A DNA stretch of 53,798 nt, taken from a virus. Lineage: Duplodnaviria > Caudoviricetes. Below, piece after piece: positions 1-51,791 of this stretch. Location: the IMG/VR virus record IMGVR_UViG_3300031576_001304, positions 1 through 53,798 of that record; one strand, 5' to 3'. The translations under genes and the position numbers were made by a program. The notes beneath the pieces are model-generated. The model was not told the DNA's origin and did not search any database. It worked only from the letters and a program-made list of their open reading frames with translations. The first letter of the stretch is position 1, and the number at the start of each line of letters is the position of its first letter.

Positions 1-1089
1 TCACTGCACCTTCTCTCCGGCTGTAACCGGATTTGTAACTACCGAAGGTTGCTGCCCCATGTACGATTCCATCTTCGCGGCGGCGCTTTGCAGATCTCGC
101 CGGCTCACGATGTCGTACCGCCTGTAGACGCTCTCGGTTCTGTGCCCAGTGATCGACATGGCCACGTTGCGTGGAATGCCTGCGCGCTCCATGTTCCTCA
201 CTGCGGATCGTCGGAGGTCGTGGAACAGCAAGCCAGGGACTCCCGCGGCGGCGCAGGCCTTACTCCAGCCCTTCAGGTGTGAGCCGATCTGCCGGCCCAT
301 GTAGCTGAAGACCCACGGGCACGCCGACCACTTCTGGTCTCTCAGAGACCTCTGCATCTCCAGCCACGCTTTCATCTCGCCGTAGACCGGGAGTGTTCGC
401 GGCCGTTTGTTCTTGGTCTGGGATCCGGCCAGGCGGATTTCGCCGGCGGCTAGGTCGACTTGGTCCCATCGGAGCGACCGTAGTTCGCCGAGTCGGTTCC
501 CAAGGTGGAATCCGACCACCAAGAGCGGCTTCAGGTGCTGCGGAAGTGCGTCCCGGAGGGCGAGGTATTGCTCGTGTTCCAGGAACCCTTGGCGCGCGTT
601 GTCTTCTGGTAGGTGGGGTATGTGTGGGACGCGGGAGACGAGCGGCGGGTCCTGAGCGGCCCCAAGATTGAATGCACGCCGCAGTGCCGCGAGCTCCCGG
701 TTGATCGTAGCGTTACTGGTGCCCGCCCGCCGCCGGGCGTCGATATACGCCTGAGCCTTCGTACGGCCGAAGTCTGCGGCTCGGATATTGCCGACAGCCG
801 GTAGCAGGTGTTTCGTCACCCGCCATTGCAGCGACTTCAGGCTCCTGCGCTCGTGGCGCTCGTAGTCCTCGATGAGCAAGTTGAGCAACTGGCGGACGGC
901 GACTCTCTCAATACCGCCAACGAATTGTCCGGTGACGATTTCGCCAAACCGACGCTTCAGCAGCCGCAAGGCTTCTTCGCGAGTGGATCCGCCGCTCTCG
1001 TGGAATGACCTCCCGTTTCGGTGGTACTTGATCCACCAAACAGATCCCCGACGGTAGAGGCAGCCAGTTCCGCTTGGGCGCCGCGTCAT
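1..1089 (-). CDS. int: Tyrosine recombinase (phage integrase)
   Basis: Catalytic residues R (GNRLGEL), K (TKNK), HDLRR, TGH and Y (RRY). Start placed at ATG 1089 (MTRRPSGTG), which overlaps the upstream TAA. Confidence 0.95.
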   Translation of the reverse strand: MTRRPSGTGCLYRRGSVWWIKYHRNGRSFHESGGSTREEALRLLKRRFGEIVTGQFVGGIERVAVRQLLNLLIEDYERHERRSLKSLQWRVTKHLLPAVGNIRAADFGRTKAQAYIDARRRAGTSNATINRELAALRRAFNLGAAQDPPLVSRVPHIPHLPEDNARQGFLEHEQYLALRDALPQHLKPLLVVGFHLGNRLGELRSLRWDQVDLAAGEIRLAGSQTKNKRPRTLPVYGEMKAWLEMQRSLRDQKWSACPWVFSYMGRQIGSHLKGWSKACAAAGVPGLLFHDLRRSAVRNMERAGIPRNVAMSITGHRTESVYRRYDIVSRRDLQSAAAKMESYMGQQPSVVTNPVTAGEKVQ

Positions 1090-1367
1090 TACGCTGCCTT
1101 CGCCTCGTCGATGACCCGATCTATGTCTTTTGTGTCCAGAAAGACCCGACCATCGAGCCTGACCGCCGGCAGTTTGCCGGCAGCCACCATGTGGCGCACG
1201 GAATACTCTGACCGCGAGAGGTACTCCGCGGCCTGCGGGACGGTCATTAACCGTGGCTGTCCCGCATCCGGTCGCAGTCTCGCCAGGACTCGCTCGGCGA
1301 CGCGATCCGCCAGGTCGTCGAGCAGCCTGGTCAGGCTGGAATCGCCAAGCCTTGTGCCTTGTGACAC
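1089..1367 (-). CDS. Excisionase-like HTH (HTH_17) DNA-binding protein
   Basis: LMTVPQAAEYLSRS...GKLPAVRLDGRV motif; translationally coupled to the integrase. Confidence 0.85.
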   Translation of the reverse strand: MSQGTRLGDSSLTRLLDDLADRVAERVLARLRPDAGQPRLMTVPQAAEYLSRSEYSVRHMVAAGKLPAVRLDGRVFLDTKDIDRVIDEAKAA

Positions 1368-1630
1368 ATTTCCCCGCTTGCCGGTTTTCGCTTCTTCCCG
1401 TAGTAGCGGTGCTTGATACGCACGCTATCTTGACGGATGGCTCGCGCGATGTCATTGCGACCGTAGACCTCACACAGACGTGCGCACCGCTCGCGCTCTT
1501 CTACGACCTGAAGCACAACGGCCTCAGAAACCAGGGCTCCCAGAACATCAACCAGGAGACTCTTGTCGCCTGTCAAAACACGCGTCTTCAAACCTGCCTT
1601 CTTCATTTGTGAACCCAGGAACCAGGCCAA
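1331..1630 (-). CDS. Hypothetical protein
   Basis: ORF fills the gap between dnaB and xis on the operon strand. Confidence 0.5.
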   Translation of the reverse strand: MAWFLGSQMKKAGLKTRVLTGDKSLLVDVLGALVSEAVVLQVVEERERCARLCEVYGRNDIARAIRQDSVRIKHRYYGKKRKPASGEMCHKAQGLAIPA

Positions 1631-1686: not shown

Positions 1687-3054
1687 CTACTCGGCTTCTT
1701 CTGGGACATCCAACTCAGCGCGATTCGCAAACAGCGTGAAGTCGCGCAAGAACACCAGTTTAGCCGTGCCGGTTGGACCGTTCCGTTGCTTTGCCAAGAT
1801 GAGGTCTGCCAAGCCACGCAGGTCTTCCCGGTCTGGCTTGTAGTATTCCTCTCGGAAGATGAACGCCACCACGTCGGCGTCCTGCTCGATGTTCCCCGAC
1901 TCCCTCAAGTCCGAGAGCCTGGGCCGGTGGTCTTCCCTCGTTTCCGGCCCGCGGCTCAACTGCGAAAGGGTGACGATGGGGACGTTCAGGTCCTTCGCCG
2001 CAAGTTTCAGGCCCCTGGTCATGATCCCCAGTTCCTGGTTGCGGTTGTCGGCTCTACGGCCGGTATCCATGAGTTGGAGATAGTCGATGATCGCCAGGTC
2101 CAGGCCCTGCTCCATCTTGAGGCGTCGGAGCTTGGAAAGTATGTCCATCACGGAGCACGTGGCTGAGTCGTCGATATACAACTTCGACTCCACAATGTCC
2201 GTCGCTGCTAGGCTGAGCCGCCTCCTCTCATCCTGGTTCAACATGGCACCCCTCACCTTTTGGGAGTCCACCCGGCCCGCCGCCGTTATCATTCGCACCA
2301 TCAACGTTACGCGTGACATCTCCAGCGAGAAGATCGCAACCGCCTTGCGTTGAGACACTGCGGCGTAGGCGGCGATGTTCAGTGCCATGGCGGTTTTCCC
2401 CGCACCTGGACGCGCTGCAATGATCGACAACTCCCCAGGCTGAAAGCCTCCTGTCAATTCGTCGAACGTGCGGAACCCGGACCGCACTCCATTGGAAACG
2501 GTTCCCTGATCGAGCAAGCCTTGGAGACCGCCGGGGTAGTTCTCGATGATGGACATGGCTGAAAGCAGGTCACTGCCAGGCAATTCCTGACTGATACCCA
2601 GGATTCTGTCGCTCGCCTCCTGGACCAGCACATCTCCCTGCCGCTGGTCCATGAGGGCTTCGTTGAGGATGTTGTTGGCAGCGAATGCCAGGCGCCTCTT
2701 GATGGCCTTGTCCTTAATGAGGCGGATGTAGCTGTCGAGGTTGTACAGGCGCGGTAGGCCGTCGTCGAGCGTAACGAGGTAGGAGAGGCCGCCAACGGTT
2801 TCCAGCTTTCTCTGTGTCAGCAGTTCGTTAGAGACCGTGATACGGTCGATCCTCTCGCCCCGCTCGCAAAGGACCTGCATCACCGAGAAGATTCGCCGGT
2901 GCGCCTCCGTGGTGAAGTCGTCCGGCCCCAGGCCACCGGCGACCACGGGGAAGTTGGTGTCGTCGAGCAGAACCGATCCGAGCACGAGCTTCTCGGCTTC
3001 CAGGTTCGATGGGAGCCCGCGCTCAAGGGCTACATTCTGCATCGTTGTCTCCAT
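1687..3054 (-). CDS. dnaB: Replicative DNA helicase DnaB
   Basis: Walker A ARPGAGKT, FSLEM, IIDYLQLM, LSQLSR, LRESGNIEQDAD, KQRNGPTG; full length, no intein. Confidence 0.97.
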   Translation of the reverse strand: METTMQNVALERGLPSNLEAEKLVLGSVLLDDTNFPVVAGGLGPDDFTTEAHRRIFSVMQVLCERGERIDRITVSNELLTQRKLETVGGLSYLVTLDDGLPRLYNLDSYIRLIKDKAIKRRLAFAANNILNEALMDQRQGDVLVQEASDRILGISQELPGSDLLSAMSIIENYPGGLQGLLDQGTVSNGVRSGFRTFDELTGGFQPGELSIIAARPGAGKTAMALNIAAYAAVSQRKAVAIFSLEMSRVTLMVRMITAAGRVDSQKVRGAMLNQDERRRLSLAATDIVESKLYIDDSATCSVMDILSKLRRLKMEQGLDLAIIDYLQLMDTGRRADNRNQELGIMTRGLKLAAKDLNVPIVTLSQLSRGPETREDHRPRLSDLRESGNIEQDADVVAFIFREEYYKPDREDLRGLADLILAKQRNGPTGTAKLVFLRDFTLFANRAELDVPEEAE

Positions 3055-4189
3055 TCAGCTTCAGCGTGAAGGCGGGGGTGATCTTGGCGATAACCCGAAG
3101 AGCCTCGGGCATTCCGGCGCGCTTCTTGGCCTTGGCGAACGACTTCAGCTTCGCGCTGCTTACCGTCAGGGAGCCGAGCGGAATATCCCAGTCCGGCGAG
3201 ACGGTTGGCAAATCACCGAACCCGAACAGCCGTAGAACCTTGTCCATTGCGAACTCCGTTCGCTCACCCGGCACGAGCTCAGCCGCCATTCCGCCTCCCA
3301 AGTCCACCTTGCCGGCGTTCTGGAGGTAGGTTCTCAGTGCGTCTTCCGCCTTCGACACCCAGGACTTCCCGGCCTTCAGGCGAAGCGCCAGGGCGCGCGC
3401 GTCTTCGGTCGTCTGCAATGGGCCGATGTCCAGGGTTCCCTTGGCGACGTCGGCCCGCAGCGGGCACGTGAACGTGCAGAAACCGCACAATCCGGCGTTG
3501 GGGTTGACAGGCATCTCTTCGGCGCGTCCGAAGGCATCGATGATCGACCCGATGTGTCGACGTGCGGCAATGACTTGGGCTTGCATCCATTCCATGTCCC
3601 CGCGCTGGAAGCTCACGCTCTTGGGTGCCCTGGCGCGGATGAACTCCCAGTCGAACCGGACGGCTTCCACCCAGGGGAAGTGGGCGAAAACCAACGTGGC
3701 GTAGTGGAGCGCCTCGTACTCGTCCATCGCACCCCACCCAGTCTTGTAGTCGTCTATCACGGCTTCGGCGCCGTGGACCGACAGCAGGTCGATGGTGCCG
3801 TGTGCAAGGGCCGCCTCCGGCCTCTCCCCAGGAGTTCCGCCGATGCGCATGTCCAGTGGACGGAACTGCTCATCGACGGAGAGGAACAACTCGGCGGCGA
3901 AGACCTTCCTCGGGTCGATCGAGAAGGTCTCCATATCGTCGAGCACGAGGGGGAGCGCCCACTCGCCGATCTGCAAGGCTTCGAGCCTGCCCATGATCCA
4001 TTCCTGGTCGGAGTGTTTTCCGGTGGCGATCAGGTGATCGACATAACCACGTCGGTAGCGGTGGAAGTCGGTGCCGGCTTCCGCCGGCCGACTTTGAGTG
4101 GTGAGCGCACCACCGGAAAGATGCGACAGTGCGAAGAACCGCGGACAGCCCGCGGCCTTCGCCAGCGACTTTGAGACAGAGAGATTCAT
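3023..4189 (-). CDS. PD-(D/E)XK exonuclease, Cas4/RecB-like, probable Fe-S cluster
   Basis: GTIDLL...IDDYKTG core; N-terminal CPR plus C-terminal CGFCTFTC; ATGA overlap at 4186-4189. Confidence 0.8.
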   Translation of the reverse strand: MNLSVSKSLAKAAGCPRFFALSHLSGGALTTQSRPAEAGTDFHRYRRGYVDHLIATGKHSDQEWIMGRLEALQIGEWALPLVLDDMETFSIDPRKVFAAELFLSVDEQFRPLDMRIGGTPGERPEAALAHGTIDLLSVHGAEAVIDDYKTGWGAMDEYEALHYATLVFAHFPWVEAVRFDWEFIRARAPKSVSFQRGDMEWMQAQVIAARRHIGSIIDAFGRAEEMPVNPNAGLCGFCTFTCPLRADVAKGTLDIGPLQTTEDARALALRLKAGKSWVSKAEDALRTYLQNAGKVDLGGGMAAELVPGERTEFAMDKVLRLFGFGDLPTVSPDWDIPLGSLTVSSAKLKSFAKAKKRAGMPEALRVIAKITPAFTLKLNGDNDAECSP

Positions 4190-13310: not shown

Positions 13311-13766
13311 TTGGCGGTTCAGAAATACTTGGTTCCGGGGCCAATCAAACCCCGGTCCGGCAACTGTTGGGGGTGGAGTCTGCAACCAGGCGGGATTCAG
13401 GTAAAGAACGTGGACGGTACGCCGGCGTTTGAGGCTGACGACGATCTCGCGCGGCAGATTCTTCGCTCAAAGCACGGCCGGATTCGCAGGGACGGCCGCA
13501 ACGGTCGGCACATCCAGCTTCTGGTAAACGTCGGCGAAGTCACCGATGGGGAGGCGCCGGTCAAGCCGCTCACCATGTCAGACCTTCGCCGCGGGATGAA
13601 GTACGTGTTCCGTCAATCGCTCGGAGACGGCAGGTACGTGTATACCCTGCGTGATCTGCCGGGTATCGGCATTCGCTTTGTCGGCGAGCCGATGCGGGCA
13701 ACAGAGCGCGCCGCTGATGCGCGGGGCATCTTCACGGAAGTTCTCCGGTCGGTCTGCGCGGCTTGA
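13311..13766 (+). CDS. Hypothetical protein; start uncertain
   Basis: First rightward ORF; TTGA overlap with the next gene. Confidence 0.6.
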   Translation: MAVQKYLVPGPIKPRSGNCWGWSLQPGGIQVKNVDGTPAFEADDDLARQILRSKHGRIRRDGRNGRHIQLLVNVGEVTDGEAPVKPLTMSDLRRGMKYVFRQSLGDGRYVYTLRDLPGIGIRFVGEPMRATERAADARGIFTEVLRSVCAA

Positions 13767-14137
13767 AGCCAGCACGAGACCGGCTTTACTTGGCCTGGAT
13801 CAGAACGCTGCCGTGCGTCGCGTGTCGCCGGTGGCCGACAGAGTACAACCCGACTGAGGCGGCACACACGGGACCGCATGGCCTCGGTCAGAAGTCTTCC
13901 GACTACAGCGCCATTCCGCTGTGCGCTGAGTGTCACCGGACCGGGCCCCATGCGTACCACCGCAGCCTGCGGCGGTTCAACGAACACTTCGGCCTGGACG
14001 TACAAGGCATCGTCGGTTTCCTGGGCGCGGCCTACCGCGATCCAGCAAGGAGGTCACAGATTGCGTATTGTCCTTCCTCTGTTTTCTGTGGGCGAGTCGG
14101 CGCTAGCTGCGATGGCCGACCCGTCGCCGTCGCCTGA
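13763..14137 (+). CDS. DUF968 / Ref-like HNH-fold protein
   Basis: YLAWIRTLPCVAC...AAH...IPLCAECH. Confidence 0.75.
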   Translation: MKPARDRLYLAWIRTLPCVACRRWPTEYNPTEAAHTGPHGLGQKSSDYSAIPLCAECHRTGPHAYHRSLRRFNEHFGLDVQGIVGFLGAAYRDPARRSQIAYCPSSVFCGRVGASCDGRPVAVA

Positions 14138-14378
14138 GGACGTTGCGATAACAGCCGAGCGCATCCGACTGGTTCGCGAGAGCCTGAACGCCCTGACGCG
14201 GGTTCAGCGGGCAACCGTCACGGCTTTTTACATAGACGAGCTTTCACCCGACAGCGTGTGTGATCGCATGGGGTTCAGTAAGACGCGCCTGTATCGTGTG
14301 CTCGCAGAATCCCGATTTCGCATCGAGGCGCGCCTTCGAGCGCGTGGTATCAGTTCGGCCTGGTGCCTGGCGGCGTAA
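14061..14378 (+). CDS. Sigma-70 region 4-only HTH protein
   Basis: DPSPSPED...LNALTRVQR...FYIDELS..SVCDRMGFSKTRL; AAGGAGG before TTG 14061. Confidence 0.65.
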   Translation: MRIVLPLFSVGESALAAMADPSPSPEDVAITAERIRLVRESLNALTRVQRATVTAFYIDELSPDSVCDRMGFSKTRLYRVLAESRFRIEARLRARGISSAWCLAA

Positions 14379-14870
14379 TCACCACAGGCTGAGGTTTTGT
14401 GGGGCCCGAGCCGGTGGAGTGTTGCCCCTGTCTTCGATGGTGTCCCCGTCCTGTGTGATCTGGAGTACGCGGTAGCCCATCAGTACAACGACCGGCGCCA
14501 GCAGGTAATGCCGGTGGCACCCATGGAAGTCGCCTTCTGAGCACATCATGGCGGTCAGGGTCGTCGGTGGTAGCACGTAGCGCAGGAAGTCGCGCACGCC
14601 GGCCGGCGGCAGTGGATCTTTACCGCCGAGCTTTCCCATGTGCAGGTAGTCGATGTCCGCCGACTGGCAGGACAGCCTTAGTGCGTCTCTGTCGAACCAG
14701 GGGAATCGGTAGCTGCGTGGTGACGTGCGAACGTCCCAAAGCGCTTTGATCTCATGGCGCTTCAGGAGACCCAGAAACTTCTCGACCCGGTGGTTAGAGT
14801 GACCGATCATCCAGAGCGTCTTCCCCGGACTCCCCAGGATTTCCCCGTTTTGCGTTGACAGCGGGTGCAT
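14379..14870 (-). CDS. DUF488 family protein
   Basis: IGHSNH, DVRTSPRS, LGG, MCSE...CHR motifs; probable leaderless ATG at 14870. Confidence 0.85.
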   Translation of the reverse strand: MHPLSTQNGEILGSPGKTLWMIGHSNHRVEKFLGLLKRHEIKALWDVRTSPRSYRFPWFDRDALRLSCQSADIDYLHMGKLGGKDPLPPAGVRDFLRYVLPPTTLTAMMCSEGDFHGCHRHYLLAPVVVLMGYRVLQITQDGDTIEDRGNTPPARAPQNLSLW

Positions 14871-14876
14871 AACTTC

Positions 14877-14905
14877 AGTGTACACTACAACTGGTGTAGT
14901 GTCAA
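14877..14905 (-). promoter_or_regulatory. Strong sigma70 promoter with overlapping palindromic operator
   Basis: TTGACA-17 nt-TACACT, 6 nt before the ATG; ACACTACA-N5-TGTAGTGT inverted repeat at 14882-14902. Confidence 0.75.
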
Positions 14906-15039
14906 TCAAATAGCCGCGATGGTTCAAGTGGGTTTTCTCTCGCGGCTCGGTTGTGTATTGAGACAACCGCGGTTATGGAAAACGGCGTTTCGGGCTCCGT
15001 CGGGTGATAATCGGTGGATAATGCACCCCAAGAATTTTA

Positions 15040-15288
15040 TCAAGAATGTTTTGCTGAGCAGTGGTCGGTCTTGAGTCCCATCCGCGCGTCCTCGACCAAA
15101 TGTTGGATGATCTGGGCGGTGATCATGCCGGGCGACGAAATCTTGTCGGCCCTGACGACTTCTTCGTAGCCGCACTCTCTCGCGGCCGGCTCGACGATGT
15201 GGTGCAGGAGTTGATCGGCCTGCTTGCGCGTGGGTGTCCCTTCGTCTCCAATTGGGCTGATAACGAAGCAGGTTTTCAAGTTTATCAC
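15040..15288 (-). pseudogene. Truncated nucleoside 2-deoxyribosyltransferase-like protein
   Basis: CFVISPIG...VRAD...GMITAQIIQHL, but the expected ADL..D...NPNV.YELG half is missing. Confidence 0.6.
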
Positions 15289-15317
15289 CCCCAGGCGTTT
15301 ATTCTACAACGAGTTTC

Positions 15318-15386
15318 GCGGTGAAGCACGTGGGTGCGCCCCGGCGTCCAACCGGGGAGGCCGGTTCGACTCCGGTAGCCGCTCCA
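15318..15386 (+). tRNA. Degenerate tRNA-Gly(UCC)-like RNA, 69 nt, encoded CCA
   Basis: Acceptor GCGGU/GCCGC + U + CCA; D stem GCAC/GUGC; anticodon stem CCCCGG/CCGGGG with loop CGUCCAA; T arm GCCGG-UUCGACU-CCGGU. Confidence 0.8.
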
Positions 15387-15717
15387 ACGATTCGTGAAAT
15401 CCAGCCACGCCGAAGGTTTGGCGCTTGGATTGACGGGCGTCGCGAATCCAGCAATCACCATGCCGGAGTTTGGCACGTGAATTGACGGCGCCGTGCGCGA
15501 AAAAAATCTGTGGAAAAGTCAAAGCGATACAAAGACCTGGGCGTTTTCGGGTTTTTCGGCGCTAAGCTATTGAAAGTAAGGGGGCGTGGTCGGTGGGTGA
15601 TTGTATTGACCAGTGCTCTGTAATCGCGCTACGGGGCAATACGCGAGAAATGCCCTAAGTGATTTGTGTTGAATTGGTTACGTGGCAACAGTTTGGCACT
15701 TGGCGTGATTACCTGTC

Positions 15718-17025
15718 ATGTTCGTCGGCGCAATCGAGTCTGAGTTCCGCCAGTGGTTCGCGCTCAACCGCCAGGCCTTCGCTGGCCGGACGTTGTTCGT
15801 CGGCTGCTCGGGCAACTTCACTATTGAGCAGCTTCTGGGGCCGGTCGCCGGCGCCGTTCACTCGAACGATGTCTCGATCTACTCGCATTTCCTGGGCAAC
15901 CACCTGGCCGGGCAGCCGTTCAACTGCCGGATCAAGGACCCGGCCTGGGAGTGGCTCTCGGTCTTCCTCGACGAGAACCCCGGCGCCTGCATCGTCCTGC
16001 TGTTCGAGCTTCTGAAGTGGGAGCGCCAGAAGACGCTCTTTGAGCAGCGCATCTATCGGGAGATCCTCGATACCTGGGAGTGCCGGTTTGAAAAGACCGC
16101 CGAGCGCGTCGAGCAGGCGAAGGCGCTGTGCCGGGTGAGCAGTTACCGTAGCTCGGACATCTTCGACTTCGCGGAGGCCGCCCGGGAGATCAACCCCGCC
16201 GGCGTGTTCCTGGCGTTCTTGCCGTTCTACAGGGGCGGGTACGAGCGGCTGTATAAACGCCTCGACCAAATCCTGGATTGGGACCGGCCGCGCTACGAGG
16301 TCATTGACGCGGTGCGCAAGGCCGCCATCGTCGAGCGCGTTCGGCGCTTCGATCACGTCGTTATCGACGACGTGGAACACGCTGGCGACCCGGCGGTCAT
16401 GCTCAAGCGGAAGTCGCCGACGAAGTCGATGTGGCTGTACTCAAACCTAGATCTGGACCGGGTTCTGGTTCAGCGGCATGCCAACTCAGAGCCGACATAC
16501 TATCCGATCCTGACGGACGACGACGCGGACCGGTTAACGCCGGAGTCGGTCGTCACGATCAAGCGAGTCAAGGCCGCTGAGATCAACTACTACCGCAACC
16601 GCTACCTGGCGAAGGGGATCGAGTTCGCGGACGGCCAGTGGAGCCTCCTGTTTTTCGCTGACGGCAAACTGTTCGGGTTCGCGATCGCGTCGCTATCAAA
16701 GTTTGGCGGCGCGGGGTTGTACGTCATGAGCGACTTCGTGGTTCCATTGACGAAGACGAAGCGCCTGTCGAAATTGCTGCTCCTGCTCATGCAGGGCTCG
16801 CACTTCCGCGACGTGTGCCAGGAGTTTACGTTGTCGCGCGTTCCGGTGCTCAGTACCACGGCGTTTACGGACAAACCGATCAGCATGAAGTACCGGGGCA
16901 TCTGGGAGTTGGCGAAGCGCGGCAGTGACGCCTCGGGCAAGAAGTTCCTGAACTATCAGACGGCCACTGGCCTGCACGATGACGCGGAGGCGATTCGACG
17001 GTGGATGACGCAGTACCGACGGTAG
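15718..17025 (+). CDS. Adenine methyltransferase-like domain fused to a GNAT/Mom-like domain (antirestriction DNA-modification protein)
   Basis: N-term FVGCSGNFTIE, HSNDVS, FLPFYRGGYE; C-term LLFFADGKLFGF, SDF, RLSKLLL, TTAFT, SMKYRG in GNAT-like order. Confidence 0.7.
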   Translation: MFVGAIESEFRQWFALNRQAFAGRTLFVGCSGNFTIEQLLGPVAGAVHSNDVSIYSHFLGNHLAGQPFNCRIKDPAWEWLSVFLDENPGACIVLLFELLKWERQKTLFEQRIYREILDTWECRFEKTAERVEQAKALCRVSSYRSSDIFDFAEAAREINPAGVFLAFLPFYRGGYERLYKRLDQILDWDRPRYEVIDAVRKAAIVERVRRFDHVVIDDVEHAGDPAVMLKRKSPTKSMWLYSNLDLDRVLVQRHANSEPTYYPILTDDDADRLTPESVVTIKRVKAAEINYYRNRYLAKGIEFADGQWSLLFFADGKLFGFAIASLSKFGGAGLYVMSDFVVPLTKTKRLSKLLLLLMQGSHFRDVCQEFTLSRVPVLSTTAFTDKPISMKYRGIWELAKRGSDASGKKFLNYQTATGLHDDAEAIRRWMTQYRR

Positions 17026-17813
17026 GCGAGATCCAGGAGCGGCTGGAGGCCCTGAACGCGGCACTGGCCGGCGTTATGCCGTTCCGCCTGGCGCTGTTCG
17101 CGCCCGGCGACCTTACACTGCTGGAGAAGAACGCCCGGTTCATGCGGAACGACACCTTCGCGCAGCTCGTGTCGAACGTGAAGCGCGACGGCGCACTGGC
17201 GAGCGTCCCGCTGGTCTACGCGCCGCCCGGCGGGAAGCCCGTAGTGCTATCTGGCAATAACCGGGTCATGGCGGCCAAGTCAGCCGGGCTCGCTCAGATC
17301 CTGTGCCTGGTCGTCGACCGCGAGATGGACCCACAGGAGCTTGTGTCCGTGCAGCTCTCGCACAACTCCCTGGTGGGGCAGGACGATCTCCCGACCCTGA
17401 AGGAACTGTACGACTCAATCGACGACCTGGCGCTGAAGGCCTACAGCGGCCTCGACGAGGATGTTCGCAGACAGCTTGAGGCGATCAAGTTCGAGGCAAT
17501 CGGGGAGCCGCGGCTCCTGTTCCGGAGGGTCACGTTCCTGTTTCTACCGGCCGAGGCGGACGAGATCCGCCGGCTGGTCAAGGAGGTTGAGAAAGCCCTC
17601 GATGACGAAGACGCCTTTCTGTTCCAACTGCGAGACTACGAGGAATTCTTCAACCTGGTCGCCGACTGTAAAGAGAAACTGAACATCAGGAACAGCGCCG
17701 TGGCTCTTCTGGAGTTGCTGCGTCGAGGCCGACAGACCTTGGGCGACGAGGCCGCGCCCGCCGGAGGAGAAGCAATGAAATGGCCCGCCCCTCCAAGCTC
17801 GACGAGCGACTGA
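17001..17813 (+). CDS. ParB/Srx N-terminal domain protein
   Basis: KNARFM...LVSNVKRDG...VLSGNNRVMAA...QLSHNSLVGQDD. Confidence 0.8.
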   Translation: MDDAVPTVGEIQERLEALNAALAGVMPFRLALFAPGDLTLLEKNARFMRNDTFAQLVSNVKRDGALASVPLVYAPPGGKPVVLSGNNRVMAAKSAGLAQILCLVVDREMDPQELVSVQLSHNSLVGQDDLPTLKELYDSIDDLALKAYSGLDEDVRRQLEAIKFEAIGEPRLLFRRVTFLFLPAEADEIRRLVKEVEKALDDEDAFLFQLRDYEEFFNLVADCKEKLNIRNSAVALLELLRRGRQTLGDEAAPAGGEAMKWPAPPSSTSD

Positions 17814-18286
17814 TACAGGAGTTTGTTCACCACGTTCGCCTGGGTACGGAGATCGACACTTGCTGCACGTTGGCCGGGATTGGACGCGAGACGTTCTACC
17901 GCTGGAAACGTCGAGTCGCCGCGGGCAAAGGCGACAACCTCCAGCGCAAACTATTCAGCGAGCTTGAACTCGCCATCGCAGACTACGAGGCGCTTCTTCA
18001 GCGCCTTATTCTCAAGGCCGGCGAGAAACAGTGGTATGCGCTGGCTTGGCTTGCCGAGAGGCGGTTCCCAAAGAAGTACGGCAGAAAACGGCCATACGCC
18101 GATGATCCTGACGGATCGCAGCAGCGCGTCGTGGGTGCCAGGTTCTCGCTGTTCGGTCAGCCCGCATGGGATACACCTACACGCCAACCCGATCCGGGCT
18201 CGTCTACGACCGATGGATTGACGGCTACAGACCGTACCCCGGCCAGCGACGATTCCACGAGCTCCGGTCCAGGTACAAGGGGCTGA
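17780..18286 (+). CDS. Terminase small subunit (HTH)
   Basis: MARPSKL...LAGIGRETFYRW...AWLAERRFPKKYGR; directly precedes TerL. Confidence 0.75.
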   Translation: MARPSKLDERLIQEFVHHVRLGTEIDTCCTLAGIGRETFYRWKRRVAAGKGDNLQRKLFSELELAIADYEALLQRLILKAGEKQWYALAWLAERRFPKKYGRKRPYADDPDGSQQRVVGARFSLFGQPAWDTPTRQPDPGSSTTDGLTATDRTPASDDSTSSGPGTRG

Positions 18287-19542
18287 GTGGACCAATCGGG
18301 ACCGGGAAGACCAAGGCTGCCTGCTACGAGGGGATCAAGCTCTCTTACGCGAACTCCGGTTGCGTCGGTCTGATCGGTGCACGGACGTACCGGATGCTGG
18401 CCGACGTCACGAAGCGGACGTTCCTGGAGATTCTCCGGGAAGAGCAGATACCTTACGACGACCGGCCGTCCGACAACAAGGTGACCTTGACCGAGCCGGG
18501 GTCCGAAGTCGTCTTCCGGTCCCTTGAGAACCCGGACTCGCTGCGTGGTCCGAACCTGGCATGGTTCGGGTGCGACGAGCTCAGCTACGCCAGCAAGGAC
18601 GCCTGGAGAGTGCTTGAGGGTCGCCTGAGAGAGCCGAAGGCGGTGTTGCTCTGCGGCTTCGGGGGGTGGACTCCGAAGGGCTTCAACTGGGTCTACGACA
18701 AGTTCGTCAGCCCAGAGAAGCCAGCCGGCTACGAAGCGGTGATTGCTTCGCCGGCCGAGAACCGGGCGATCCTCGACAAAGACCCGGACTTCTACGAGCG
18801 ACTGAAGGGCTCGTACGACGAGCGGTTCTACCGCCAGGAGGTCCTGGGTGAGTACCTGTCGCTTACGAGCGGTACCGCGTATTACGCCTTCGAACGTACG
18901 GGCAACTGCGCCGAGGTAGGGTTTGATCGGCGAGCGCCGCTCTGCTGGTCCATGGACTTCAACGTCAACCCGATGTGCTCCGTGCTGTCCCAGGTTGTCG
19001 ATGGCCGGGTGCTGGTTCTGGATGAGATCGTTCTGCCGGACTCCAACACACACGAGGCGTGCGAAGAGTTCCTGGTGCGCGCTGAGCAGTATCGCGTGAT
19101 CCTGCGTGGCGATCAGTTCGGCAGCGTTAAGCTGACCGTCCACGTCTACGGCGATGCCAGCGGGTCTTCTCGGAGCACCGCGGGCCGGTCTGACTGGCAG
19201 ATCGTGCGCGAGTTCTTCGGTCGGCACTCTGACAAGTTCCAGGCCGTGTTTCGCGTTACATCGTCGAATCCCATGGTGCGGGATCGTGTGAACGCGGTTA
19301 ACGCGATGCTTCGGAACTACGCCGGTAAACGGCGGCTGCTGGTCGGGACCAGGTGCAAGGAGTTAGTCCGGGATCTGGAGCGCGTCCTGTGGCGGCAAGA
19401 CACGAGCGGCAACGTGCTGTCACAGCTTGACAAGTCCGATCCGGCTCGAACCCACATATCGGACGGCTTGGGTTACATGATTGACCGCGAGTTCGGGCTG
19501 CGGGTTAAGGGCGGGCCGCGAACAGAAAGTTTGGGGGTGTGA
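18166..19542 (+). CDS. terL: Terminase large subunit
   Basis: Walker A GPIGTGKT, LRGPNL, Walker B WFGCDE, TPKG, nuclease SMDFN, GDASG, HISDGLGY. Confidence 0.93.
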   Translation: MGYTYTPTRSGLVYDRWIDGYRPYPGQRRFHELRSRYKGLSGPIGTGKTKAACYEGIKLSYANSGCVGLIGARTYRMLADVTKRTFLEILREEQIPYDDRPSDNKVTLTEPGSEVVFRSLENPDSLRGPNLAWFGCDELSYASKDAWRVLEGRLREPKAVLLCGFGGWTPKGFNWVYDKFVSPEKPAGYEAVIASPAENRAILDKDPDFYERLKGSYDERFYRQEVLGEYLSLTSGTAYYAFERTGNCAEVGFDRRAPLCWSMDFNVNPMCSVLSQVVDGRVLVLDEIVLPDSNTHEACEEFLVRAEQYRVILRGDQFGSVKLTVHVYGDASGSSRSTAGRSDWQIVREFFGRHSDKFQAVFRVTSSNPMVRDRVNAVNAMLRNYAGKRRLLVGTRCKELVRDLERVLWRQDTSGNVLSQLDKSDPARTHISDGLGYMIDREFGLRVKGGPRTESLGV

Positions 19543-50362: not shown

Positions 50363-50731
50363 TCAAAACTCCTCGAAGTTCCACCCGCCGCCGTCGCGCT
50401 TCGGGCGTGGGCTGGCTGCAATGAACCGAAACGGGAACTGCTCGGCTGCGACCTTGATCTTCACCCTGGCGTCGTCTTCCCAAAAGCCCTTCACCTCGTG
50501 GACCTCCAGGGACCCATCCGCCGCCACTACCAGAAAATCGGGCGTGTAGAACGTCGCCTTCGCCAGCCGCAGCTTGATCCCCTCAAAGTCGAACCATTGG
50601 ATCTCTCCACATCGGCGCCTGACCTCCAGGTGCTCGGCATACGCTCGCTCCGTCCCGTTCATCACGCCCGGCTCGTGTCGCGGACGGGCCTTGGCGATCA
50701 GCTTCCCGTTTCCGTCGAGAGCGAGGATCAT
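50363..50731 (-). CDS. DUF1064-like PD-(D/E)XK endonuclease
   Basis: E..YA..L, YTPDF, HEVKG. Confidence 0.8.
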   Translation of the reverse strand: MILALDGNGKLIAKARPRHEPGVMNGTERAYAEHLEVRRRCGEIQWFDFEGIKLRLAKATFYTPDFLVVAADGSLEVHEVKGFWEDDARVKIKVAAEQFPFRFIAASPRPKRDGGGWNFEEF

Positions 50732-51417
50732 GCGGCGTTCTCCGATCCGAACAGAACGCCTTGAGCCAAGCGCTTAACCGCAAGTTCGCAGTAACGCTCC
50801 TCAATCTCGACGCCGACGACGGGCACACCGAGAGCCTTGCAGGCGACCAGCGTAGTGCCGGACCCCGCGAAAGGATCGAGTACGGACGATCCGCCGAACC
50901 ACTTTACAAGCCAGCGCACGTGCTCAAGTTTTCGCACCGATGGGTGCCGGAGCGCCCTTACGTTCTTCACGTTCTCGGTGCCCCTTAAGTGGCCGCGCTT
51001 AAAATCGGTGCGCGTGGCAATAACACGGCCAGGCATAACTCTGGCGCCCGGCAAGGACTTCGGCGGCTCTCCGAAGACGTAGGCGACATCGGCGTCGCGC
51101 AACACGCGGCCGGCGTAACCGACCAGCGCATACTCCAGGTAACAGGTGCGCAAGTATGGCCAGACCGACGGGACAGCACGAAGGAATCGCGGATCTGACA
51201 TACACCCCAAGTGGACCACTGCGCGCTTCGCCTGGTGAAGTTGTTCGAGCACGCTGGCCAGTAGACCATGGGCGTCGATGCCTGGAAACACGTGCTCGCA
51301 GTTCGGCCAGACCGGATCGGTGATGATCGATTCGCACGGATCGAGTGCCGGGCAAACCTCCCGAGCATCCCCGTGGAACAGCGTAATTCCGGGCTCCCTG
51401 TAGTATGCCTGGATCAT
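50728..51417 (-). CDS. N4/N6 DNA methyltransferase (beta class) with DPVW motif IV
   Basis: LFHGD, IITDPVW, HP..R, VLDPFAGSGTT, GVEIEERY. Confidence 0.8.
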   Translation of the reverse strand: MIQAYYREPGITLFHGDAREVCPALDPCESIITDPVWPNCEHVFPGIDAHGLLASVLEQLHQAKRAVVHLGCMSDPRFLRAVPSVWPYLRTCYLEYALVGYAGRVLRDADVAYVFGEPPKSLPGARVMPGRVIATRTDFKRGHLRGTENVKNVRALRHPSVRKLEHVRWLVKWFGGSSVLDPFAGSGTTLVACKALGVPVVGVEIEERYCELAVKRLAQGVLFGSENAA

Positions 51418-51791
51418 TTCAGCACATCCGGCATCTGCCGCCATGCGACGCCATCGAGCATGGCGCCTGATGCTTTCTTGCCGACGAACCGCCCGGTTTT
51501 GGGGTCGGTCTCTTTGTCCTGGTTGTGAAGCCGATTGTGCTCCGCTCTGGTTATGGCCTCAAGATTCTCCAGCCGGTTGTCACGCTTGTCTTCATTCTTG
51601 TGGTGAAGGACGTAGCCACTTGGAACTGTCCGGCCGGCAGCCCACCAGATCAAGCGGTGAAGATAGGTCCATCCATTGCGGTCGGATAGCGGGTGAAGTT
51701 TGCCGACGCGAACTTTCACGTAGCCCTCGCGGTGCTCGCCAACGCCTGAAGACCACCGATAGTGGAGCGATCCAGGGTTACCTTTGGGCAC
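51414..51791 (-). CDS. HNH endonuclease
   Basis: HRLIW...LHHKNEDKRDNRLENL...EHNRLH. Confidence 0.85.
   Translation of the reverse strand: MPKGNPGSLHYRWSSGVGEHREGYVKVRVGKLHPLSDRNGWTYLHRLIWWAAGRTVPSGYVLHHKNEDKRDNRLENLEAITRAEHNRLHNQDKETDPKTGRFVGKKASGAMLDGVAWRQMPDVLK

Follow-up and report, generated by a model that had tools for sequence, protein, structure and literature searches.

The window, i.e. the whole stretch of 53,798 nucleotides that was analyzed, is a complete virus record (IMG/VR IMGVR_UViG_3300031576_001304; Caudoviricetes) with a GC content of about 61%. Its leftward arm carries an integrase, a DnaB-like helicase and other early genes, and its rightward arm carries the terminase, the portal protein and structural genes. 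A compact tRNA-Gly-like element lies in a divergent intergenic region, with a DUF488 gene on the opposite strand on one side and, on its own strand, a gene for a Dam-like/GNAT fusion protein followed by a ParB-like gene on the other (Table 1). A simple scan of positions 14900-15800 found no sigma-70-like promoter and no intrinsic terminator. No RNA dataset is listed as containing the region, and only DNA runs of one cave-metagenome sample, which is probably the source, contain it. A megablast search of positions 14000-17500 against isolate phages returned no match.

Table 1. Features of the window discussed in the text
Position	Strand	Feature	Details
1-1473		Integrase	phrog_1; about 14 kb from the element
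14379..14966	-	DUF488 protein	Pfam PF04343, 53.8 bits
15289-15717		Divergent intergenic region
15318..15386	+	Compact tRNA-Gly-like RNA gene	69 nt; anticodon UCC
15318-15324	+	Acceptor 5' strand	GCGGUGA
15325	+	Linker	single A where U8 and N9 normally sit
15326-15337	+	D arm	stem GCAC/GUGC, 4-nt loop GUGG
15345..15351	+	Anticodon loop	CGUCCAA (G33, U34, C35, C36, A37); G33 replaces the near-universal U33
15383	+	Discriminator	U73
15384-15386	+	Encoded CCA end
15387..15717	+	Spacer between RNA gene and enzyme gene	331 nt
15718..17025	+	Fusion enzyme, proposed user of the glycyl-tRNA-like RNA	435 aa; PF22555 (phage Dam-like domain 1), 159.5 bits; PF22559 (phage GNAT-like domain), 134.7 bits
17001..17813	+	ParB-like protein	phrog_7405 and ParB-like PHROGs
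18166-19542		Terminase

A reduced tRNA-Gly-like element

The remaining parts of the element are a 6-bp anticodon stem (CCCCGG/CCGGGG), a 2-nt variable region (AG), a canonical T arm (GCCGG/UUCGACU/CCGGU) and a 6-nt 3' acceptor strand (AGCCGC). The latter gives the pairs G1-C72, C2-G71, G3-C70, G4-C69, U5.G68 and G6.A67 and leaves the acceptor/T junction one base short. The observation made in the earlier note is confirmed: the intact acceptor pairs 1 to 3, U73, C35/C36 and CCA, and the G at position 33, missing U8, 4-nt D loop, 6-bp anticodon stem and short junction with a G.A mismatch, are all present in the sequence. The 2-nt variable region was not mentioned there. A canonical tRNA has U33 in a 7-nt anticodon loop, a U8 plus N9 linker, a D loop of seven or more nucleotides and a variable region of 4-5 nt, and the element departs from this set in its G33, single-base linker, D loop and variable region.

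Standard finders do not call the element. ARAGORN found no tRNA in the entire window, Rfam returned nothing at gathering scores, and the only permissive Rfam hit was tRNA-Sec with 24.4 bits against a cut-off of 47. The MFE fold of the sequence alone is not a cloverleaf (z = -0.96), so that thermodynamics alone says nothing and any case for function has to come from comparison. We built covariance models from related elements (models R1-R3). Model R3, constructed from 42 related elements without the window, scored this site at 53.9 bits (E 1e-9; full length 1-68), whereas the next best of 49 listed sites in the window (both strands, filters off) scored 17.1 bits.

Occurrence and conservation of related elements

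The PF22555+PF22559 fusion family is large, with at least 394 proteins at E <= 1e-5, and some sources annotate it as a methyltransferase. A tblastn search of isolate phages with the fusion enzyme hit 15 records, all Gordonia or Mycobacterium phages with 26-30% identity. We examined three of them and found an element in each: Mycobacterium phage Jeon carries an annotated tRNA-Gly(tcc) that abuts the homologue, whereas Gordonia phage Jollymon and phage Clawz carry unannotated tRNA-like elements at the same place. R3 ranked each of these as the top hit of its locus (27.9-33.5 bits). A scan of IMG/VR with the single protein gave one locus, without an element. We then collected 80 IMG/VR loci with 1.5-kb flanks. 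In these loci and four others (L001-L004; 84 in all) ARAGORN made eight calls, seven of which are Gly and the eighth a miscall of the same element. Model R2, run over the window and the 84 loci, gave 24 matches at E <= 3e-4 (the window and 23 loci), all on the strand of the enzyme. Searching the whole contigs of 50 of the 57 loci without a hit added seven same-strand tRNA-Gly(-like) genes, of which five lie 2.4-4.3 kb upstream and two lie far away, and one unrelated tRNA-Lys at a contig end; the other seven loci were searched only within the fetched region. With one locus (L082) added by R3, the total is 31 of 80 contigs. The general Rfam tRNA model, run over 40 contigs, missed the compact elements and mostly found tRNAs at contig ends.

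In 80 bacterial genome loci from many phyla, taken with 5-kb flanks, R3 gave 22 matches in 21 loci. One match is a tRNA-Glu and one (locus L181) is a canonical tRNA-Gly with U33 on the opposite strand; another locus (L186) was added by a further R3 search, leaving 21 of 80 loci with a same-strand element. One of these is from Nevskia soli (L155), which has the closest relative of the enzyme (56% identity). Its element lies 230 nt upstream and shares the compact design of the window element, namely a one-base linker, a GCAC/GUGC D stem, G33 and a 6-nt 3' acceptor strand, while its other stem sequences differ. The element is not universal: most enzyme loci lack a detectable one, only three of nine near-complete viral genomes with the enzyme have it, and neither R3 nor an acceptor-stem pattern search found it in any Streptomyces, Kitasatospora or Streptantibioticus locus. 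It can therefore only be an accessory. Elements sit either directly upstream of the enzyme gene or directly downstream of the ParB-like gene, and in many loci they end only about 18-25 nt before the start codon. A tblastn homologue of the ParB-like protein lies directly downstream of the enzyme on the same strand in 80 of 84 loci. DUF488 was found in five of five related contigs tested, just upstream of the element.

Conservation was analyzed in 26 elements found through the neighbouring enzyme gene (set A5; 22 clusters at 85% identity). The four helices are 91.6% paired, and 20 of 22 pairs show changes on both sides. The covariation score is 0.728, compared with an average of 0.179 for shuffles (0 of 500 reached the observed value) and 0.10-0.12 for slid partners. 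The alignment was fitted to the model, which favours pairing; even so, both controls are far below the observed score. A larger set of 42 elements (A7) behaves in the same way, although its G33 frequency is inflated because half of that set was found with a G33 pattern. In A5, G1-C72, C2-G71, U73 and C35C36 are each found in 26 of 26 elements, G3-C70 in 24, A37 in 22 and an encoded CCA in 19. In contrast, position 33 is G in 17, U in 6, A in 2 and C in 1, position 34 takes all four bases (A 13, U 7, C 3, G 3), and the D arm and variable region shrink. Six of the 26 elements thus keep U33 and look like ordinary tRNA-Gly, for example those of loci L046 and L092. As a control, R3 was run over five host genomes that carry the enzyme: all 16 tRNA-Gly genes recovered have U33 and anticodon UCC, GCC or CCC, none has ACC, and all 36 tRNA genes in those loci have U33.

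G1C72, C2G71, C35, C36 and U73 are the determinants of bacterial alpha2beta2 GlyRS, with purine 4 and pyrimidine 69 preferred (PMC10464925), and all of these, including G4-C69, are present in the window element. That G3-C70 is a further determinant is the claim of the earlier note and is not taken from that paper. The earlier note had proposed a chargeable but ribosome-excluded RNA and had specified in advance that random degeneration of homologues, including the identity bases, would speak against it; comparison of the homologues showed the opposite, and its interpretation is supported. Chargeability and ribosome exclusion are nevertheless inferences, since aminoacylation, EF-Tu binding and expression were not measured here, and GlyRS is reported to need the arms and the whole L shape (PMC10464925), so that a reduced D arm might impair charging. 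The note did not recognize the likely purpose of the element, a link to the adjacent GNAT enzyme.

We also performed a reverse search, in which 2.9 million IMG/VR contigs were scanned for G33 elements. A strict pattern for the compact type hit nine contigs, all of which are enzyme contigs; since the pattern was derived from them, this mainly shows that there are no extra carriers. A looser pattern, requiring G33-NCC-A, a T loop and a CGC-U-CCA end, gave 56 stretches, in which R2 gave 55 matches. The fusion enzyme lies beside the element in eight stretches, two of them new (L119, and L123 with two tandem elements). In seven stretches (L122, L129, L138, L140, L142, L146 and L152), true Mom-family proteins (PF25680, 143-182 bits against a cut-off of 27.1) lie directly before the element, and in L150 a stand-alone PF22559 GNAT follows it directly. 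In L111 (and in L131, judging from an ORF of the same length and position), a DUF488 gene is followed by the element and then by a protein matching the MprF C-terminal aminoacyl-tRNA transferase domain (LPG_synthase_C, PF09924). This is a third aminoacyl-tRNA-using fold beside this kind of RNA, but the match is modest (31.3 bits against a cut-off of 27.5), and the function of the phage protein is unknown. Of the remaining stretches, some are ordinary tRNA clusters, such as L109 and L136, and many have neighbours that could not be assigned (10 ORFs from nine stretches were tested), while the rest were not examined. Neighbours in L114, L144, L149, L108, L117 and L118 have no Pfam family, those in L114 and L144 are unrelated to Mom and to each other, and that in L151 gave only a sub-threshold match. 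A tblastn search of isolate phages placed the best relative of these Mom proteins in the cultured Psychrobacter phage vB_PmaS_Y8A, where the gene order is a ParB/sulfiredoxin-domain gene, the Mom homologue, two tandem unannotated elements (37.5 and 30.2 bits) and the terminase.

The neighbouring fusion enzyme

The AF2 model of the fusion enzyme is confident (pLDDT 88.6). By VIA-align, residues 1-245 match the Dam fold, superposing best on E. coli Dam (2g1p_A: Z 13.3, rmsd 4.3, 187 residues aligned), with T4 Dam and DpnM at Z 11.6-11.8. The catalytic motif of these methyltransferases is (D/N/S)PP(Y/F), typically DPPY. The candidate position reads FLPFY in the window and FLP(T/F)Y in the family consensus, but because the equivalence was placed by eye and not from a residue-level structural alignment, this leaves undecided whether the domain still methylates. 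Residues 273-419 match a GNAT fold, with many Foldseek hits to GNATs at probability 1.00. The highest-ranked GNAT among those compared by VIA-align is the Mu Mom crystal structure (8bv8_A: Z 11.0, rmsd 3.2, 139 residues aligned), although this ties with a generic acetyltransferase (1y9k_B, Z 10.8), and others reach 10.1.

At the sequence level the enzyme shows no relationship to Mom. The window protein matches only PF22555 and PF22559, whereas Mu Mom matches PF25680, and hhalign of the enzyme profile (A1) against Mom gave a probability of 0.3%; the same value was obtained against the MprF-like protein of L111. PDB sequence searches with the protein and with profile A1 found nothing meaningful, including no hit to any methyltransferase. 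NCBIfam gave nothing for the enzyme, the ParB-like protein, the DUF488 protein or the phrog_3634 gene. No claim is made that the proteins bind each other, and no complex was modelled.

Proposed role and alternative explanations

Mom is experimentally shown to transfer glycine from Gly-tRNA-Gly to N6-adenine of double-stranded DNA, and it needs the tRNA-Gly body, since it rejects tRNA-Ala mischarged with glycine (PMC13219725; preprint 10.1101/2023.03.24.534169). With moderate confidence, we favour the view that the element is a phage-encoded tRNA-Gly derivative that no longer decodes and serves as a dedicated glycine carrier. In this view, the RNA is transcribed with its CCA end already in place and is charged by the U73-type GlyRS of the host, because the acceptor and anticodon determinants are kept. 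G33, the reduced D arm, the 2-nt variable region and the shortened acceptor/T junction would keep it out of ribosomal decoding, so that its glycine would not be drained into protein synthesis. The neighbouring enzyme would bind DNA and flip a base with its Dam-like domain, and its GNAT domain would transfer the glycyl group from the 3' end of the RNA onto the DNA, most likely onto N6 of adenine as Mu Mom does, with the ParB-like protein helping on DNA. The outcome would be hypermodified, restriction-resistant phage DNA. Our analysis demonstrates a real, structured and conserved RNA family in which GlyRS determinants are selectively kept while decoding features are lost, and its genetic linkage to three kinds of GNAT-type transferase, including true Mom; for the window, every step beyond the existence of the gene and this selective pattern is inferred, and the DNA product was not examined.

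Among the closest known systems is phage Mu Mom, a GNAT-fold enzyme that uses glycine from charged tRNA-Gly for anti-restriction. Mu, however, uses host tRNA-Gly, all three isoacceptors of which work, and the window enzyme has a Dam-like domain in place of the HTH-like insertion of Mom, and its chemistry is untested. Literature searches, which did not extend to subscription journals or supplementary files, and term searches in the main text of the Mom paper, whose supplements (a similarity network and homologue figures) might mention neighbouring tRNA genes, found no phage-encoded tRNA or tRNA-like partner for Mom and nothing on PF22555 or PF22559. The non-proteogenic tRNA-Gly isoacceptors of Staphylococcus aureus, used by FmhB, FemA and FemB, are also dedicated glycine donors: they are charged by the normal GlyRS, interact poorly with EF-Tu and the ribosome, and are preferred by a GNAT-fold transferase, thus partitioning Gly-tRNA between translation and another pathway (PMC7826273). 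They are cellular, their acceptor is a peptidoglycan precursor, and the lineage is described as present only in staphylococci, so common descent is unlikely and the resemblance is functional. Membership of the window element in that lineage was not assessed. The elements described here are structurally reduced and mostly lack U33, a feature that we did not check in the staphylococcal tRNAs. Both systems are precedents for the concept.

tRNA-dependent DNA modification has so far been shown for one enzyme, Mu Mom. If phages also supply their own glycine-carrier RNA, this would be the first viral counterpart of the staphylococcal tRNAs and a natural example of a tRNA shaped by selection for charging but against decoding, useful for separating GlyRS, EF-Tu and ribosome determinants. 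The linked RNA would act as a genomic flag predicting that the widespread, uncharacterized PF22555+PF22559 family transfers glycine to DNA. Because tRNA finders miss these genes, they are unannotated even in isolate genomes such as Jollymon, Clawz and Y8A. A broader possibility, which we consider about as likely as not, is that phages of many lineages encode a distinct class of non-decoding, GlyRS-chargeable carrier tRNAs, typically with G33, often with anticodon ACC and with a reduced D arm, whose sole job is to channel activated glycine into DNA hypermodification. At least three unrelated transferase families would use them (Mom, the Dam-like/GNAT fusion with its ParB-like partner, and an MprF-like protein), and the fusion would then be a second, independently evolved family of DNA-aminoacylating enzymes.

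Two alternatives appear unlikely to a similar degree. The first is an oddly shaped but working tRNA-Gly(UCC) that supplements translation of GGA and GGG codons. Phages often carry tRNAs, and some enzyme-linked elements (L046, L063, L088 and L092) are canonical enough for ARAGORN and keep U33. GGA plus GGG make up 39% of glycine codons in 20 large ORFs of the window, but glycine codon usage is unremarkable. This reading does not fit G33 in the window element, non-U33 in 20 of 26 relatives, the free position 34 beside fixed C35 and C36, the commonest anticodon ACC (13 of 26), or the failure of tRNA finders. The window holds no other tRNA, and codon supply leaves the tight, same-strand linkage to GNAT transferases, rather than to a tRNA cluster, unexplained. 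The second is a cis-acting RNA signal, such as an RNase P processing site or punctuation mark for the late operon, or a regulatory tRNA mimic that ties enzyme expression to GlyRS or glycine status. The element does flank the two-gene operon, often closely. However, processing needs only an acceptor/T minihelix and not invariant C35C36 and A37 or a glycine-specific acceptor stem, and the distance (331 nt in the window, 2-4 kb in several contigs) and the side both vary.

A decoy is less likely still, whether for an anticodon nuclease, as the earlier note had alternatively suggested, or for GNAT toxins that acetylate Gly-tRNA-Gly, such as TacT (cited in PMC13219725). Keeping tRNA shape and identity while losing decoding is what a decoy would need, but a nuclease decoy should conserve the anticodon loop that the nuclease reads, whereas positions 32-34 vary and the loop is often closed to 5 nt. 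We are aware of no glycine-specific anticodon nuclease, although none was sought. A decoy predicts neither the invariant U73 plus CCA nor the repeated placement beside Mom, PF22559 and MprF-like transferases with a ParB-like gene, and the suggestion gains no support. A dead remnant, either a decaying tRNA pseudogene or the tRNA-derived part of an attP site, might be suspected because tRNA finders fail on the element, the phage has an integrase and some related contigs end in tRNA genes, but it is very unlikely, since the integrase is distant, the whole cloverleaf and not just a 3' fragment is present, compensatory changes keep 90% or more of pairs across 22 sequence clusters, and the element recurs beside the same genes in unrelated phage lineages.

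Companion genes of the tRNA-Gly-like element

A gene encoding a DUF488 protein (PF04343) recurs immediately upstream of the tRNA-Gly-like element, and this holds whether the downstream transferase is the Dam-like/GNAT fusion or the MprF-like protein. It may represent a fourth component of the module, although its role is unknown. The MprF-like protein, found in viral locus L111, is a phage protein that matches the MprF C-terminal aminoacyl-tRNA transferase domain (PF09924) and lies directly after a G33 tRNA-Gly-like element, and it could be a third kind of tRNA-dependent modification enzyme in phages. More G33-type elements (loci L108, L114, L144, L149 and L151) have neighbors with no confident Pfam family, the neighbor in L151 giving only a sub-threshold match. 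The L114 and L144 neighbors are unrelated to Mom and to each other. There may be further partner families. In loci L116 and L130, a B12-binding radical SAM protein lies just upstream of a tRNA-Gly(UCC) with the loop CUUCCGG (G37); our data did not show whether the two are linked. The phage studied here also encodes a conventional DNA methyltransferase (phrog_67) and an HNH/DUF968 protein, so it may carry more than one DNA-modification function.

Locations of additional features
Source	Coordinates	Strand	Feature
Window	14379-14966	-	DUF488 gene
Viral locus L111	2969-3490		DUF488 gene
Contigs of loci L007, L012, L020, L057			DUF488 gene
Viral locus L111	3517-4485		MprF-like protein
Psychrobacter phage vB_PmaS_Y8A (L235)	3219-3286 and 3291-3359		Tandem tRNA-Gly-like elements
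Locus L123	1443-1508 and 1516-1581		Tandem tRNA-Gly-like elements
Gordonia phage Jollymon (L002)	2821-2894		tRNA-Gly-like gene
Gordonia phage Clawz (L004)	2823-2896		tRNA-Gly-like gene
L116	372-1934		B12-binding radical SAM protein
L130	9834-11396		B12-binding radical SAM protein
L114	4432-4506		G33-type element
L144	2035-2104		G33-type element
L149	6015-6086		G33-type element
L108	10936-11001		G33-type element
L151	5449-5521		G33-type element
Window	15428-15495		Repeated motif in spacer
Window	50728-51444	-	DNA methyltransferase (phrog_67)
Window	13763-14137	+	HNH/DUF968 protein
Nevskia soli contig (L155)	4702-4770		Closest relative of the window element

Tandem, unannotated and structurally divergent elements

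Tandem pairs of tRNA-Gly-like elements lie next to a Mom homologue in Psychrobacter phage vB_PmaS_Y8A, where the pair is not annotated in the GenBank record, and next to a fusion enzyme in locus L123. The tRNA-Gly-like genes in Gordonia phages Jollymon and Clawz, with anticodons CCC and UCC, are unannotated and have a non-canonical 8-nt T loop; they lie directly upstream of the gene annotated as “methyltransferase” or “hypothetical protein”. The spacer between the window element and the enzyme gene holds two copies of an ATTGACGG-like motif about 50 nt apart, which were seen by eye, without statistical evaluation, and could be a promoter or an operator. The closest relative of the window element, found in Nevskia soli, has lost both the GG of the D loop (AGAU) and the canonical T loop (UGUAAUU), and the D-loop/T-loop elbow contact may have been given up on both sides.
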